Shown here: in pieces, positions 2,276 to 16,151 of the stretch | Numbering within the stretch: position 1 is the first letter of the stretch | Layout: every line of letters begins with the position of its first letter | Source of the DNA: Candidatus Bathyarchaeia archaeon | GTDB lineage: Archaea; Thermoproteota; Bathyarchaeia; Bathyarchaeales; Bathycorpusculaceae | Direction of reading: 5' to 3' | Length of the DNA stretch: 19,875 nucleotides | Assembly (NCBI GenBank): GCA_050015395.1 | Contig: JBEKBM010000035.1 | Span: 1-19,875 of the forward strand | The notes under the pieces: model-generated | Database searches by the model: none | Told to the model about the DNA's origin: nothing | Seen by the model: the letters and a program-made list of their open reading frames with translations, nothing else | Made by a program: the position numbers and the translations under genes

Positions 2276-3712
2276 TCAAGTAGTCTTAGCTAGCTTTGTT
2301 TTTCTTCTGTTTAGAATTATAAGTCCTAGTGTCGCTATGACTGCAACCAAGACAGCGATTATAACTAATAAAATCATTTGACCTCCAAGCAGGTTTCCCA
2401 TAGTGGTAGAGAGAGAAGCAGGAGTAGAGGTAGAACTAAACGTAGCAGTAGATGTAGGGCTAGAAGTAGATGCTTGAGGGTTTAAGCTCATAACTACTGC
2501 ATGGGTGCTGTGATGATAATGTATGGTTATTAACCAAACATTGCCCTGTGAGAAGGTGGCGTAAGGAGTCGTCTGGCCATCTACCGTTGCTGTTAGTGTT
2601 GAAGCATCGGGCATGAGTGATTTTGGAATGCAAACTTGGGCATACCCTATTGTTCCTGAAGGCCCAGAGACAGTAAAGCTTAACGCATCTGTTGTTGAGT
2701 CAAAAGCTAAACTTGTAAGCGTTGAATTTGAAGTTATGGAGAAGATATTTTGATCTTGATTATCGAAAGGTGCTACTGCAAAGTTGACTGTCGTGCTTAC
2801 ACTTGAGTAGACACCGTCACTTGGCCACGTAGCTTCAACGACATAGGTACCTGAAACAGAAGGCATCCACACACAAGAGAAACTTCCGTGATCGTCTGTG
2901 GTCACGTAAGCTAAGTTTTGCCAAGTGGCTCCATCTGTGACACTGTAGGACAACAGTACTCCAGCGCCAGATAAGCCTACTTCGTTATATGCCAGTGAAC
3001 CCTGAATTACAACGTTAAACCCAGAAAATGTTGTAGAACTTGTGCAATAAAACGATAAGGCCGGGGATGGCAGATTTGATGTAGGTGTTGGTTGTGGTGT
3101 AGGTGTTGGAGTCACTATTGGAGTTGGTTGTGGTGTTGGAGTACTTGATGATCCTGCAAAAAAGGCGTCAAGTTGATGATCCATAAGCATTGATACTGTT
3201 ATGCCGGTTCCAGCTCCCTCGTAGGTTCCATCAAGATACCAACCACTAAATGTGAAACCTGGATTTGGGGACTCTGTAACGACTACTGAAGCACTGGAAG
3301 TATAATTCCAAATTCCTGTTCCTGGCGCTATTGTTCCGCCGTTGGCTGGATTTGCGGTAATTGTAAGTGCCACTACTTGTACACTAAATACTGCTTCTAA
3401 GTCGTAGTTTTGGGTCATTGTTATGAGAATGCTTGATAGTTGGCCTTCGTAAACTCCATTCAGATACCAACCATTAAATGAGTAGCCTAAATTCGTTTGT
3501 TCAGTAGCAACAATAGTTGCACCATAAGAGTATTGACCAGATCCAGGAGTAACAGTTCCTGCTCCTGAAAGATTAACGGTTACGGTCAAAGTGTCCCAAG
3601 AAGCAGGAGGATAAGGAGGAGGAGTTTGCGCTGACACGATTGATGTAAAACCTACACTGATCAAAAATGTTAGCATAAGTAAGCACGTAATTTTGCGAGC
3701 GCTAACTTTCAT
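2276..3712 (-). CDS. Membrane-anchored cell-surface protein with two InlB B-repeat/Flg_new-like domains, Pro/Thr linker and Ig-like domain
   Basis: N-terminal signal peptide. Two repeats with G(Y/F)xFxGWY(L)xG and a terminal L-x-A-x-F. PTPQPTP linker, Ser/Thr-rich stalk, C-terminal TM helix followed by RRKTK. Confidence 0.85.
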   Translation of the reverse strand: MKVSARKITCLLMLTFLISVGFTSIVSAQTPPPYPPASWDTLTVTVNLSGAGTVTPGSGQYSYGATIVATEQTNLGYSFNGWYLNGVYEGQLSSILITMTQNYDLEAVFSVQVVALTITANPANGGTIAPGTGIWNYTSSASVVVTESPNPGFTFSGWYLDGTYEGAGTGITVSMLMDHQLDAFFAGSSSTPTPQPTPIVTPTPTPQPTPTSNLPSPALSFYCTSSTTFSGFNVVIQGSLAYNEVGLSGAGVLLSYSVTDGATWQNLAYVTTDDHGSFSCVWMPSVSGTYVVEATWPSDGVYSSVSTTVNFAVAPFDNQDQNIFSITSNSTLTSLAFDSTTDALSFTVSGPSGTIGYAQVCIPKSLMPDASTLTATVDGQTTPYATFSQGNVWLITIHYHHSTHAVVMSLNPQASTSSPTSTATFSSTSTPASLSTTMGNLLGGQMILLVIIAVLVAVIATLGLIILNRRKTKLAKTT

Positions 3713-9420: not shown

Positions 9421-9902
9421 CTAAAGCACCACGTGTAATCGGGCTGGAACATACTGTAGGGAAACAGTTATGCGTTTGCGACTAAGGCTACTGCGTATTT
9501 CATTGTTTATTCTTGTGTTGCCTTGTCCTTTGCTGGCGTGTCCAAGCCGCATTATTTTCCAGTTTTGCATGTTTCCGCGTATGATCTGAGGGTTACTGGT
9601 CAAAATATAGAAAGGTATCTTGGTTTGTGAAGTGTAGAGTTCCGCGATGAAATTTAATAGGCGTTTTCCAACACCTATTCCCTGATAGTCTGGAAGAACA
9701 ACTAATCTTGTTACTCGGTAGTATCTTGTTTTCATGTGGGTGTGGACGACTGCGATAAACGCTATCGGCTTGTCCTGATAGACTGCAGTGTAGCATCGTG
9801 CAGTTGAGGGCAGGGAGCCGTTTAGATAGTGATATTGCCGAAACATCTGCCACAGGGAAGCGCCGCACCGATAAACCTTGAGTTCAACGGGCGGCCTAAT
9901 CC
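9421..9902 (-). CDS. GNAT acetyltransferase domain, in the -1 frame of the upstream ABC ATPase (likely C-terminal half of an ABC ATPase-GNAT fusion)
   Basis: Acetyl-CoA motif A: RLVVLPDYQGIGVG. The frame is open upstream of the ORF-track ATG (9846) as RIRPPVELKVYRCGASLWQMFRQYHYL, back to the A7 run. Confidence 0.8.
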
Positions 9903-10502
9903 TTTTTTTCTGTCAAACTCCATAGTGTCTGTGCAGAACACCCAATCAGGCTCCAACCAATCAACAACATCATAATGGCAAGTTACGGCAATGAACTTCT
10001 TTTTAGATCGACGAACAGCCTTACTAATCGCATAAGCACTAACCTTAGCTATTTCCCTATCAACTACACTTGTAAACTCATCAAAAACAATCAACCCCTG
10101 ATTAAGACAAAGCGCTCTTGCGATGTCAACCCGCATCTTTTCACCTTGGCTGAGGCAATCGTAGCTCTTGAGCCAGTCCGGAGGAGAAGCAAAACCAACA
10201 CTCGAAAGTGCCCGGGTAACCTCACCGGTTTCAAGTTCTGTGGGAAAATCATCCAAGACGCATTTATGGGTGTACTCAAAGCCTCTAATGTAGGCGTCGG
10301 GAAATAGTTGTTTGGCTATGCTTGTTTTTCCTGATCCGCTTCGCCCCACGATTATTCCAACTTGCCAATCATCCGCTTCTATGGGTAGGGAACCTTTGAA
10401 GTGCTTTTCTAATTTGACGTCGGAAAGCGTGAAGCTGCCAACGACGCTTTGAGCTCTGAAGCTGTCTGATTGGTCCCATTGTTTTACAATGTCAAAATCC
10501 GT
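9822..10502 (-). CDS. Soluble phage-type ABC ATPase (N-terminal half of the ABC-GNAT fusion)
   Basis: Walker A GRSGSGKT, signature LSQGE, Walker B IVFDEFTS, H-loop VTCH, no TM partner. The frame is open 51 codons upstream of the ORF-track GTG (10349): TDFDIVKQW...FRAQSVVGSF...WQVGIIVG. Start placed tentatively at ACG 10500-10502. Confidence 0.8.
   Translation of the reverse strand, partial: TDFDIVKQWDQSDSFRAQSVVGSFTLSDVKLEKHFKGSLPIEADDWQVGIIVGRSGSGKTSIAKQLFPDAYIRGFEYTHKCVLDDFPTELETGEVTRALSSVGFASPPDWLKSYDCLSQGEKMRVDIARALCLNQGLIVFDEFTSVVDREIAKVSAYAISKAVRRSKKKFIAVTCHYDVVDWLEPDWVFCTDTMEFDRKKGLGRPLNSRFIGAALPCGRCFGNITI
9862..9909 (-). promoter_or_regulatory. Candidate -1 programmed frameshift signal: A_AAA_AAA (9903-9909), 7-nt spacer, hairpin (9862-9895)
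   Basis: The minus strand reads AG A AAA AAA GGATTAG GCCGCCCGTTGAAC TCAAG GTTTATCGGTGCGGC. GCCGC/GCGGC, CCG/CGG and TGAAC/GTTTA pair. Confidence 0.6.
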
Positions 10503-11044
10503 AGCTTGTAACCCTCCGATTTGAGCTTCTCAAAAATGCTTTTTTGGTTAGCCTCATCCTTGCACTCGACTATTATTTCATAGGTTGCAGGAATGCTAAC
10601 AGAAAACTCACGCTCCAGTAGTTCTTGAGGTAATTTTTCTCCTACAGATGCAAGAAGCGCTTTCAAACAGTCTTTTTCACCCTGCTCGATTATGCGCATG
10701 TACTCGGCAGCGTCAAGCTCCTTGTTATGTTTCCCTTTGAGCTTGTTGAGAATTTGCCGAAGCATCCGCCTATCCACGTCACTGACTGGCAACCGAAGAA
10801 CTGGAGCGTAAAACTCGTTATGCTGCTTACAGACTTCAGCACGCTGTTCACCATCAGCGTAGACGCCGTCTTTGTTGGTTATGAGTGGATATGCCCAACC
10901 ATATTTCTGCAGGCTCCTCCAAATTTGCTCTTGCTGATTAACCGTAGTACGATTTGGGTTTTGTTGATCCGCCTGTAGAAGACGAATATCCTCCAACAGC
11001 GGCAAATATGCATCAGGAACTCTAATTGTTGTTTTCTTCTCCAC
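10484..11044 (-). CDS. ParB/Srx N-terminal domain protein (phage type)
   Basis: NPN...SLQKYGWAYPLITNKDGVYADGEQR motif. C-terminal YEIIVECKDEANQ..FEKLKSEGYKLRILTL overlaps the ABC gene. SD-like AAGGAG before the GTG start. Confidence 0.85.
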   Translation of the reverse strand: MEKKTTIRVPDAYLPLLEDIRLLQADQQNPNRTTVNQQEQIWRSLQKYGWAYPLITNKDGVYADGEQRAEVCKQHNEFYAPVLRLPVSDVDRRMLRQILNKLKGKHNKELDAAEYMRIIEQGEKDCLKALLASVGEKLPQELLEREFSVSIPATYEIIVECKDEANQKSIFEKLKSEGYKLRILTL

Positions 11045-11330
11045 AGTATATCTTCTCCTTTTCCTTCATGAAAGAAATAGCAAACAAAAGTTGACCCCCG
11101 CCATCAGCCACCAGCAAATCCTTATTCGTAACTATTGGAACAACGAAGCCCAAACGCTTAATGCTCTCTTTCAGTGCCTTGAACTGGCGTTTCCCTAACC
11201 TGTTAGGATTGCAACCATCAACCCGAAGCTGACCAACGTCAACAACCTCAGCAGGCGGAACCTTCAAATCAAGATCCATTAACTTCCCTGGCACTTGCAT
11301 GGCACTTGCAGACAACAAAGTTTTTTCCAT
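11022..11330 (-). pseudogene. Second ParB N-terminal domain gene, apparently truncated at the catalytic DG motif
   Basis: NPNRLGKRQFKALKESIKRLGFVVPIVTNKDLLVADG parallels the downstream paralog. The expected GExR is replaced by GGGQ and unrelated sequence. Confidence 0.6.
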
Positions 11331-11331
11331 T

Positions 11332-12984
11332 TTAATCATCGTCAACTATTTTTTCCTTTTTCCTGATCACTGCAACACCAACTCCTGGAGGAGCTCTTGA
11401 GTAAACAAGGATGTTCACGCCGTTGCTGCACGCGTCCACTTGATCGTCATGTTCGCCTTCCGGGAAAACTTCAGCTTCATCCAGGAAATTGCTGATCCAG
11501 TCGCCTTCAACCAGGAAGACGTTTCCGCGTTCTGTAGCGGCGCTGAAGGGGTTCGCACGATTCTCCTTGCTCCCAGTACTGCGTTGACTGCGAAAAGCAT
11601 AACCAGGTAACACTTCTCTACCGTAATGATCCGTCGTAATTTTGCCGCCGCTGCCGCCTTCCTCCTCCATCCAAACCTCAACATCTTTGCCGTCGAGTTC
11701 AGCTGTCCTCTTAATGCGGTCTTCCAAGTTCTTGGGCGATCCGCGGAAATGCTCCATGTGATAAATGTAGTATTGCCCTTGCCACATACCGATTAATACT
11801 CCAGCAACCCAGTCAGGATCCTTGCCTTTCTCAGGCTCAGTAGCCGCCAAATCCCAAACGCGAATCTTACGCAAATCCATAGGCGCCTTAGCTTTCGGGA
11901 TAACTTTGAACCAGTCACGATGAAACATTGTTCCTACAGCAGCTTCCCAACTGCCTTCACGCAACTGTTTCCGTGTTGTCGGATCAAGCTTACTTAATGC
12001 TAACTCGTAGCTTCGCCTATCCAAGTACGGATTATCATCGAGCAGTGCTGGAATGAAAACGCGGCCGTACTTTTGGCCTTCAATAATAAAATACTGTTTA
12101 ACCCACGTGTGCCCTCTCCCGCCGGGGTTAGTTGCTGACCTTATCTGAAGCGGAATGCAACAGTTTTCAAGGCGCCTGTTCCTGCTGATTAAGTACTGGT
12201 ATTGCCACTGCTTAAACTGGGTAAGCTCATCCCAGCCAATATAATTATACGCGGCGCCTTGATGGTGGTAAACGTCTTCATCAATATCCATATAGCCGAG
12301 GCTTAAGGTTGCACCGCTTGGGAAAGTCCACTTGTAATCTTGCCCGTTCCATCTCGCTTCAGTGTTGCCTAGCCACTCATGAGTCCGAGCGATTAAGCCA
12401 TCAGGCTTCTTATGGTCCTGCAGTGTCTTGCGGAAAATAATTGCGTTGTAACCGGGATAGTTAACCCATCGGAGCGCTCCCATTAAGATTGCGTCTGTTT
12501 TGCCGCCTCCAGCAGCTCCGCCATATAATGCTTCGTCACAGTCAAGCAGTATGAATTCTGCTTGTGGGCTTCTGCCATCATCTGTTATTGCTGGCTTGTG
12601 CGGGATCCACTTGTTCTGCAGTACTGTCTTGTTGAAGAGAGCTTGCTTTTTCACATGCGTTTTTTCCCATTCAAGATTCCATGCATCGCTCCATTCAATG
12701 TATGCTTGCCAATCTTCACGTTTTGCTTCTTCGTTTGCCTTCAGCCATTCATCATACGCTTTGTGCCATTCACGGTACCACTGCAGGAACTCTTCAGTTT
12801 CCTGCTTTTCCAGTCTTTGTTGTTCTTCAACGGGAAGCTTCCGCCGTTCGCCCATACACTCTTCATATTTCCGCAGCAGCTCGGTGATTTCCTCTGCCTT
12901 GGCTTTCCGTTCTTCGTCTTCTTTGTCGGTGCCGAGTTTCTGCTCCACTGCCTGCAGACGCGTCAAAACATTTTTTCCATTCAT
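11332..12984 (-). CDS. terL: Phage terminase large subunit with ~110-aa N-terminal extension
   Basis: Walker A YGGAAGGGKT, Walker B IGWDELTQF, coupling motif ATNPGG, nuclease WDLAAT and HDDQVDA. Confidence 0.93.
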   Translation of the reverse strand: MNGKNVLTRLQAVEQKLGTDKEDEERKAKAEEITELLRKYEECMGERRKLPVEEQQRLEKQETEEFLQWYREWHKAYDEWLKANEEAKREDWQAYIEWSDAWNLEWEKTHVKKQALFNKTVLQNKWIPHKPAITDDGRSPQAEFILLDCDEALYGGAAGGGKTDAILMGALRWVNYPGYNAIIFRKTLQDHKKPDGLIARTHEWLGNTEARWNGQDYKWTFPSGATLSLGYMDIDEDVYHHQGAAYNYIGWDELTQFKQWQYQYLISRNRRLENCCIPLQIRSATNPGGRGHTWVKQYFIIEGQKYGRVFIPALLDDNPYLDRRSYELALSKLDPTTRKQLREGSWEAAVGTMFHRDWFKVIPKAKAPMDLRKIRVWDLAATEPEKGKDPDWVAGVLIGMWQGQYYIYHMEHFRGSPKNLEDRIKRTAELDGKDVEVWMEEEGGSGGKITTDHYGREVLPGYAFRSQRSTGSKENRANPFSAATERGNVFLVEGDWISNFLDEAEVFPEGEHDDQVDACSNGVNILVYSRAPPGVGVAVIRKKEKIVDDD

Positions 12985-15743: not shown

Positions 15744-16151
15744 CTACTGGTTTTTGGCATAAAGATAGAGCGGTCCGTCTTTTAGCAGATCCAAAGCCCG
15801 TTGCGTTTGGGTAGTTGATAGCTTGCACGTTTTAGGGTCAGTTAGGAACGGGAGTTTCTCAGACGCGTTTTGTATAATGTGAAGATCTTCCCATGTTACT
15901 TTGACGTCATCGTAGGGGGTATGCTTGTCAACATTTTCAGTCCATGCGCCTGCATCAAGTTCGTCGCCTTCAGGCAACGCAGTGAAAGGCCCAACTAAAC
16001 TTTTGTCATCAGTGTTGTAGAGAAAGATTACGGTACCTGCCTTAATTTCTTCCAAAGGCTTGGATTCTTTTTCTGCGCAAGTATAACGTTTCCTACTTAA
16101 GCACTGTTGCTGTGACACTTTATTGCAAAAAAGCACATATCCATCATACAT
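15744..16151 (-). CDS. DCD (development/cell death)-like domain protein
   Basis: GYVLFCN...QCL...EEIKAGTVIFLYNTDDKSLVGPFTA...AW follows the DCD pattern G.IF.CN.....EC......I.PG..LFLY.......L.G.F.A. Confidence 0.65.
   Translation of the reverse strand: MYDGYVLFCNKVSQQQCLSRKRYTCAEKESKPLEEIKAGTVIFLYNTDDKSLVGPFTALPEGDELDAGAWTENVDKHTPYDDVKVTWEDLHIIQNASEKLPFLTDPKTCKLSTTQTQRALDLLKDGPLYLYAKNQ

Follow-up and report, generated by a model that had tools for sequence, protein, structure and literature searches.

A probable programmed -1 frameshift joining an ABC-type ATPase to a GNAT acetyltransferase in a virus-derived gene of Bathyarchaeia

How is an acetyltransferase translated when its reading frame lies one base out of register with that of the ATPase it seems to belong to? 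This question is raised by a gene on the minus strand of contig JBEKBM010000035.1 from a Candidatus Bathyarchaeia archaeon of peat, where an ABC-type ATPase frame (the 0 frame) gives way, at a run of seven A, to a GNAT acetyltransferase in the -1 frame. The window analysed here is the whole of this 19.9-kb contig (19,875 nucleotides (nt)), one of the 42 contigs of a 2.59-Mb genome bin, and contains the gene once. Sequence comparison indicates that the conserved site is very probably one of programmed recoding of some kind. As to the mechanism, we consider it probable, at roughly 70%, that the window site is a programmed -1 ribosomal frameshift in one ancestral ABC-type ATPase/GNAT gene of the phrog_11143 family; slippage on the ribosome, its efficiency and the importance of the product ratio are what we infer on this basis.

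The window ATPase frame is open between TGA 10532-10530 and TAA 9824-9822, matches PF00005 and carries Walker A, the ABC signature and Walker B. Towards its 3' end stands the heptamer A_AAA_AAA, in phase with the ATPase frame as X_XXY_YYZ and followed, after a spacer of 7 nt (the usual range being ~5-9), by a stable predicted hairpin. The -1 open reading frame (ORF) runs for 163 codons, from CAG AAA AAA AGG to a stop at 9423-9421, and its first possible start codon is ATG 9846-9844. Every element proposed in a preliminary description of this DNA (heptamer, phasing, 7-nt spacer, hairpin, upstream TGA and -1 ORF) was found in place on the minus strand. The hairpin, put there at ~13 bp, folds to a predicted 14 bp (9895-9862); the 0-frame stop, expected ~27 codons on, lies 26 codons after the run; and the ~360-residue fusion comes to ~359 amino acids by calculation. 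The hairpin has an energy of -23.2 kcal/mol over a 48-nt stretch (z = -3.58), and none of 200 shuffled sequences was as stable. The motif by itself was rejected as evidence. With 19 A7 runs in the window vs 27.5 expected there is no enrichment, so the heptamer alone is not above chance, and the site draws its significance from the comparison with relatives.

The A7 is the true DNA sequence. Near-identical sequence is present in 20 DNA runs from 18 studies, and contigs of 4 runs other than the probable source (X3 record 6, X5 record 21, X4 record 10 and X9 record 30) span 9903-9909 with 0 gaps and list no insertion or deletion across 9421-10532; the misassembled A8 against which the preliminary description had cautioned is not what these further runs give. 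To follow the break, 160 loci were fetched, 80 from species-representative genomes and 80 from IMG/VR, and the frame relation at each was assigned by local tblastn with both halves. The 80 genome loci come from 46 assemblies (counted by accession prefix), 44 of them titled Bathyarchaeota, Bathyarchaeia or uncultured archaeon and 2 Anaerolineaceae, the latter on short contigs. Among the 112 loci with at least 60% ATPase identity, the GNAT part is adjacent in the -1 frame in 107; of the remaining five, L045 and L050 are -1 at the junction with a further break downstream, L019 has a further break, L018 has its best GNAT match elsewhere and L111 is in frame. Below 60% identity, 44 of 48 loci are in-frame fusions, three are -1 (L112, L116 and L118) and one is +1 (L115). 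At the joint of every -1 locus the A-run counts 7 or more, and the 0 frame terminates 78 or 79 nt further on. A protein search with the ATPase piece returned 6197 relatives (homologous clusters), the best 120 of which are all ATPase-only calls of 201-282 amino acids at 78-91% identity (from JGI, ENA, NCBI and Logan); 19 of these 120 were aligned and share the identical stop position, the same tail and the invariant Lys-Lys. One protein, P0122, is a garbled multi-frame call. About ten relatives have extra stops or frame breaks in one half with the A-run and stem kept (for example L015, L019, L020, L043, L051, L054, L078 and L106); these are decaying copies or long-read assembly errors.

Selection acts on the signals themselves. 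An intactness filter passed 100 loci and the window, which comprise 98 unique sequences and, clustered at 97% nucleotide identity, 96. The two Lys codons of the heptamer are AAA AAA in 96/96, with the tandem Lys slippage phase the same in all of them. In a ~350-codon read-through alignment scanned by 7-codon windows, the 15 windows of highest synonymous identity fall nearly all at codons 186-206, with values of 0.78-0.90 vs 0.459 +/- 0.119 gene-wide. The same GC stem is found in 72/96, both of its arms invariant and the spacer and 3' flank variable, so that the close homologues are not the in-frame fusions lacking a conserved hairpin that the preliminary description had named as the contrary outcome. 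In these 72 stem sequences Pro196 is CCG in all (17% gene-wide), Pro197 is CCC in 70 (23%), Arg204 is CGG in 71 (11%) and Gly206 is GGC in all (39%); the Pro196 codon of the stem-less sequences is CCA in 20/24. The stem codons are thus held against general codon usage. The ratio of nonsynonymous to synonymous substitution rates (dN/dS) comes to ~0.06 in the ATPase and to 0.135 in the GNAT part, rough values with dS saturated and 51 (ATPase) and 94 (GNAT) usable pairs of 400 sampled, and dS in the overlap is 0.575 vs about 2 in the flanks. On these figures both halves are under purifying selection, the break being kept while synonymous change is suppressed at the signals.

Two further features of this region were noted. 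Upstream of the run, GGAG occurs within 20 nt in 76/96, and its Glu codon before the heptamer is GAG in 76 and GAA in 10, vs 668 and 716 gene-wide; as a weak lead, this GGAG may act as a Shine-Dalgarno-like stimulator, as in dnaX. Downstream, the last 7-8 codons before the 0-frame stop (9825-9848, minus strand) show very high synonymous identity (Phe TTT 0.98, Tyr TAT 0.98 and 1.00), and in no relative has the 0-frame stop moved; possible causes are dual coding in the tail, a bias in codon use or a second RNA element.

The two frames encode what is a single protein elsewhere. On phrog_11143, a profile of 357 positions with function unknown in PHROGs, the ATPase piece (E = 8.9e-58) and the -1 piece (E = 9.5e-33) align collinearly, ABC nucleotide-binding domain first and GNAT second, with zero residues missing at the joint between positions 195 and 197. 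The window gene has the domain order, Walker A, ABC signature, Walker B and GNAT motifs of that family. It differs from it in being, like its clade, split at -1, where many members are single in-frame ORFs (44/48 distant loci and 14/30 cultured-phage records); the earlier statement that phage ABC-ATPase/GNAT proteins are often one polypeptide agrees with this and with the gapless profile match. JGI names such proteins 'ABC-type ATPase with predicted acetyltransferase domain'. The in-frame relative L111 was modelled with AlphaFold from a 33-row alignment (predicted local distance difference test (pLDDT) 84.9, predicted template modelling score (pTM) 0.75), and the model places the slip site in a loop (residues 191-200); behind this loop, residues 201-205 form a strand and residues 207-216 a helix of the GNAT fold. 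What follows the slip site is thus predicted to encode GNAT strand beta1 and helix alpha1, and the window ATG 9846-9844 falls within that helix. The predicted fold of L111 resembles ABC nucleotide-binding domains and GNATs in Foldseek; TmcA (tRNA cytidine acetyltransferase, 2zpa) came up at rank 17 with a low TM-score, and no functional assignment was drawn from it. For the ATPase-GNAT protein, NCBIfam gave generic ABC and GNAT matches and no equivalog, and PADLOC only generic matches and no clear system.

Table 1 Features of the ATPase/GNAT gene in window coordinates, with the joints of four phage loci listed under their own loci
Feature	Coordinates	Strand	Remarks
ABC-ATPase reading frame (0 frame)	9822..10502	-	PF00005; phrog_11143 positions 11-195
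Limits of the ATPase frame	ACG 10502-10500; TAA 9824-9822	-	ACG is the codon aligned to the relatives' start; TAA is the end
Slippery heptamer A_AAA_AAA, next base G	9903..9909	-	read GAC AGA AAA AAA GGA in the ATPase frame
Spacer, 7 nt	9896..9902	-	varies among relatives apart from the first G
Downstream hairpin (predicted)	9862..9895 (G9895 to C9862)	-	14 bp, one bulge and one 1x1 internal loop
Outer GC stem	9895-9888 with 9870-9862	-	bulged U at 9867; invariant in 72/72 stem-type relatives
Inner stem	9886-9881 with 9877-9872	-	variable, unsupported
-1 frame ORF, GNAT acetyltransferase half	9421..9912	-	PF13508, PF00583; phrog_11143 positions 197-351
TGA closing the -1 frame just upstream of the slip site	9913..9915	-	
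0-frame stop TAA, ends the ATPase-only product	9822..9824	-	26-codon out-of-frame tail after the run
GGAG, Shine-Dalgarno-like (low confidence)	9918..9921	-	8 nt before the heptamer
GGAGGG, Shine-Dalgarno-like box	10512..10517	-	9 nt upstream of ACG
ParB-like gene directly upstream of the ATPase	10484..11044	-	phrog_620, phrog_498; conserved partner of the ATPase/GNAT gene
Phage joint, L164	3031-3136		
Phage joint, L165	1112-1223		
Phage joint, L166	1082-1193		
Phage joint, L167	1135-1240		

How might the two frames be joined? Ribosomes reading the ATPase frame would arrive at A_AAA_AAA with tRNA-Lys in both P and A sites, at which point the GC-rich hairpin, beginning 7 nt further on and so positioned at the mRNA entry channel, would hinder translocation. 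A fraction of them would shift back by one base, both tRNAs re-pairing perfectly on AAA, and go on in the -1 frame to give the protein of ~359 amino acids with ATPase and GNAT joined. Unshifted ribosomes would terminate 26 codons later, leaving an ATPase-only protein of ~226 amino acids. As the preliminary description suggested, a set ratio of the two products might serve to limit a toxic or DNA-modifying acetyltransferase. We prefer a ribosomal mechanism for the A7 type because a downstream structure can act on the ribosome and because A7 is short for polymerase slippage.

Several observations weigh against this frameshift reading. The first concern the hairpin. Its z is only -1.05 when the same region is folded in a 116-nt context, and it is missing in 24/96 relatives and is thus not essential for the family. 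The preliminary description had asked whether the hairpin is conserved with covariation; the conservation was seen, but a change on both sides was found in 0/14 proposed pairs, paired cells amount to 93.6% vs 93.4% in shuffles (106/500 shuffles reach the observed value), and RNAalifold retains just 7 invariant pairs. There is no covariation support because the outer stem never varies, which leaves the test without power. Support for the stem is therefore indirect and would come down to invariance, complementarity and codon choice, and since the inner stem does no better than shuffles we claim only the outer stem of 7-8 bp. Dual coding with the 0-frame tail could in addition explain part of the synonymous constraint. 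No pseudoknot was found, in that no 5-7 bp loop-to-downstream helix is kept in at least 80% of the 72 stem sequences, and Rfam gave 0 matches on 9700-10100 at E up to 1.

The next concern the start of the gene. From its upstream stop as far as the Walker A region the window ATPase frame offers no ATG, GTG or TTG, and this missing canonical start could signal decay of the window copy. At the start position of the relatives (93 rows) we counted ACG in 41 (the window included), ATG in 13, TTG in 11, GTG in 1 and CCG in 24, the CCG rows mostly with an ATG one codon upstream; a canonical start is absent altogether in 37/93. A GGAG-type box lies 4-18 nt upstream in 40/41 ACG rows, which may start non-canonically at ACG or be coupled in some way to the overlapping ParB-like ORF, itself in the +1 frame with respect to the ATPase. 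The last point is that in-frame variants exist inside the -1 clade, namely L111 and the protein P0121. L111 has an A10 (near 3560-3600) and is nested among A9 rows, and its in-frame sisters L113 and L114 also have A10; in P0121, 339 amino acids long and in a cluster of 5 member sequences, the two halves are cleanly fused at the Lys-Lys joint.

The strongest rival is transcriptional slippage, in which RNA polymerase would add one A in some transcripts and ordinary translation would then yield the fusion; we regard it as improbable for the window site, though as the alternative to be taken most seriously. The RNA-DNA hybrid of multisubunit polymerases is 8-9 bp long, and efficient slippage is usually seen at runs of 8-9 or more. 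A hairpin 3' of the run can affect the ribosome, but not an RNA polymerase already past the run. The site is a pure homopolymer, as this rival asks, and 24/96 relatives have A8-A9 with no significant downstream structure (mean folding energy -11.2 kcal/mol, z ~0) and do reach that run length; the window and the 69 A7 relatives do not. All 69 A7 rows have the stem, A7 without it occurring in none, whereas the stem-less rows are all A8-A9; three rows combine A8-A9 with the stem. The downstream hairpin, the most strongly conserved RNA-level feature, would thus have no influence on the polymerase that has passed it. On the side of the polymerase are also the A10 variants in frame and the far relative L115 (47% identity), in which a T9 run stands at the joint (~3540-3580) and the GNAT is in the +1 frame, a single case that could be error or polymerase slippage. 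A comparable archaeal poly-A frameshift is described for Methanococcales magnesium chelatase genes in the parts of PMC3711429 considered here.

The tree bears on the same question. The -1 clade (97 rows) has a Shimodaira-Hasegawa-like approximate likelihood ratio (SH-aLRT) support of 100, and rows with A9 and no stem branch off at its base; the A7-plus-stem type lies further inside, with two nested groups back to A8-A9 without stem. When the junction columns are left out, at least 4-5 changes of the stem state are counted, and the hypothesis that all stem-less rows form one clade is rejected by the approximately unbiased (AU) test (p = 6e-5). The A7 state follows the stem state in 4/4 independent pairs, which are too few for significance (sign test p = 0.125). 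In the stem-less A8-A9 relatives, either transcriptional slippage or unstimulated ribosomal slippage may operate.

Phase variation at the DNA level, with slipped-strand mispairing altering the A-run and so switching the GNAT half on and off in the virus population, is very unlikely. It would account for the in-frame length variants among close relatives, L111 and the five members of P0121. Against it, a contingency locus is expected to show mixed run lengths, but here the off-frame length is nearly fixed (107/112 close loci at -1, and 120/120 of the best database clusters unfused), the 4 independent runs have no indel at the A-run, and the conserved hairpin would have no role.

Could there instead be two separate genes, an ATPase ending at 9822 and a shorter GNAT started at ATG 9846-9844? 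The window does have this ATG in the -1 frame (ORF 9421-9846, 141 amino acids), 29/96 relatives have an ATG one codon before an invariant Trp, and database annotations keep both parts apart. However, the window ATG comes after that Trp, inside alpha1, and its product would miss beta1 and part of alpha1. A -1-frame stop lies within 6 nt of the run in 80/96, and in 56/96 the interval from the upstream -1 stop to the Trp codon is free of ATG, GTG and TTG. The stretch from the slip site to the ATG is moreover conserved as -1-frame protein and collinear with in-frame relatives, so that the -1 ORF, with no start of its own, continues the protein of the in-frame homologues. We hold two genes to be highly improbable; judging from these alignments, translation must reach the -1 part, and do so solely from the ATPase frame. 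Least credible of all is a misassembly, or a pseudogene decaying inside a defective provirus, since the ATPase frame without a canonical start, the ~10 relatives with extra stops or frame breaks and the lack of recognised portal and capsid genes in the window are set against an A7 confirmed in 4 runs, a break kept across 60-91% protein identity with dN/dS of 0.06 and 0.135, and signal conservation that peaks at the site.

Beyond the archaeal relatives, the same break is found in bacterial phages. Comparing coordinates by hand in 30 cultured-phage records, we found the GNAT in the -1 frame in 16 and in frame in 14. The -1 records are all from Lactobacillales phages (12 Streptococcus phages, Lactococcus phage P335 and 3 Oenococcus phages); the in-frame records are from Gordonia, Arthrobacter, Porphyromonas, Burkholderia and Pseudoalteromonas phages. 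The order ParB / ATPase / -1 GNAT also holds in Vinitor-27 (Oenococcus), 315.4 and phiNIH1.1 (Streptococcus) and P335 (Lactococcus). In these four the ATPase is annotated as a 226-amino-acid 'ABC transporter' and the GNAT is unannotated or truncated in annotation; the -1 frame opens 0-4 codons before a U-run, with no start before the conserved Trp. The joints at the U-run read GGUUUUUC, or UCUUUUA in Vinitor-27. A quick tree groups the phages, L116 (A9, -1), the in-frame L113 and L114 and the Bathyarchaeia clade together (SH-aLRT 99); given its long branches, the break may have arisen once or repeatedly. Tentatively, the -1 break at the ATPase-GNAT linker might be an old, maintained control of enzyme dose, common to archaeal and bacterial viruses, for which the signal has been exchanged repeatedly: A7 with a hairpin (ribosomal), A8-A9 without one (possibly transcriptional) and a U-run (P-site slippage). 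The ACG start behind a conserved Shine-Dalgarno box (41/93) would then be a second brake, and possibly a case of non-canonical archaeal initiation. We put this forward as an idea that is rather doubtful as it stands.

How does the site compare with known systems? The -1 frameshift of Escherichia coli dnaX uses A_AAA_AAG, an upstream Shine-Dalgarno-like element and a downstream hairpin. The window resembles it in the A-made Lys-Lys heptamer, the stem-loop a few nt downstream, the two products per gene and possibly the upstream GGAG. It differs in that the dnaX shift ends at once and gives a shorter product, whereas the window shift gives a longer one with an extra enzyme domain; its host is moreover an archaeon, and its hairpin is without covariation. 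Within the Archaea, the parts of a 2021 review covered here give fucA1, the alpha-L-fucosidase gene of Saccharolobus solfataricus, as the only reported case of programmed -1 frameshifting, adding predictions for tailed viruses of haloarchaea and a presumed case in magnesium chelatase (PMC8211752). As described there, fucA1 is likewise an archaeal -1 shift at an A-rich heptamer (A_AAA_AAT) that joins two ORFs of one enzyme, with full-length in-frame homologues elsewhere (PMC8211752). By contrast, fucA1 is cellular, confined to essentially one lineage and shown by experiment (PMC8211752), whereas the window case is virus-derived, extends to ~100 sequences, has a much stronger conserved hairpin and is known from sequence alone.

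The tail assembly chaperone genes of tailed phages and of HVTV-1 and HCTV-1, 2 and 5 are, in the sections of PMC8211752 and PMC3711429 concerned, likewise a conserved viral -1 shift giving short and long products with a shared N-terminus. The window gene differs from them in being an enzyme fusion beside ParB-like genes, and its frames are two halves of a protein that is one polypeptide in many relatives. The magnesium chelatase genes of Methanocaldococcus and Methanococcus share with it a poly-A run at a -1 break and fused homologues elsewhere; their run length correlates with efficiency, assayed only in E. coli, and they differ in that the relevant parts of the paper report no conserved downstream hairpin and that the shift may be transcriptional (PMC3711429). 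No report of an ATPase-GNAT frameshift was found in the literature searched, which included the portions covered of PMC8211752, PMC3711429, 10.1101/2023.08.24.554615 and PMC11705971. The last two, both on Bathyarchaeia viruses, mention no ABC, acetyltransferase, frameshift, ParB or GNAT in their main text, and their supplements may list the gene. On comparison, the window appears to carry a conserved, programmed -1 recoding signal with the canonical arrangement, for which we found no precedent in its gene family or host group.

The surroundings support placing the gene in a tailed provirus or a virus-derived region of a Bathyarchaeia archaeon. Its neighbours in the window are two ParB-like genes, a large terminase and a radical SAM/SPASM gene, next to host-like genes for an amino-acid kinase and an ABC-2 permease; together with the relatives' assemblies, nearly all titled Bathyarchaeia or Bathyarchaeota, the terminase and ParB-like neighbours bear out the archaeal-virus context first proposed. 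A ParB-like gene lies immediately upstream of the ATPase in 111/118 loci. In the window there are two adjacent, overlapping ParB-like ORFs (10484-11345, minus strand; 107 and 186 amino acids), the second being the conserved partner of the ATPase; we take them to be paralogues and not a split gene, because both match the N-terminal part of ParB and methylase PHROGs. The large terminase (11332-12984, minus strand) is upstream of the ParB/ATPase genes, and a homologue was found in just 7 other loci, there on the downstream side of the GNAT half; the window shows no recognisable portal or capsid gene, and the terminase region may be rearranged or defective. The window also contains a 135-amino-acid ORF (15744-16151, minus strand) that matches PF10539, 'Development and cell death' (DCD), at E = 1.2e-10. 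The DCD domain family is known mainly from plants.

What does this site add? In the parts of PMC8211752 considered, fucA1 is the single experimentally grounded case of archaeal -1 frameshifting, and the window adds to it a canonical heptamer-spacer-hairpin signal with ~100 natural variants. The A7 sequences with hairpin and the A8-A9 sequences without it form a built-in series that could reveal what archaeal ribosomes and polymerases require to shift. There is also a correction to make to annotation, as thousands of entries are named, for example, 'ABC transporter ATP-binding protein' with the downstream ORF unannotated or truncated, and reference phage genomes carry the same fault. Bathyarchaeia viruses cannot be grown, but the break is present in cultured Lactococcus and Oenococcus phages, so the idea is testable in tractable hosts. 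Finally, the site would single out the ATPase-GNAT enzyme, with its adjoining ParB-like gene, as one for which the amount made, or the balance of short and long products, may matter to the virus.

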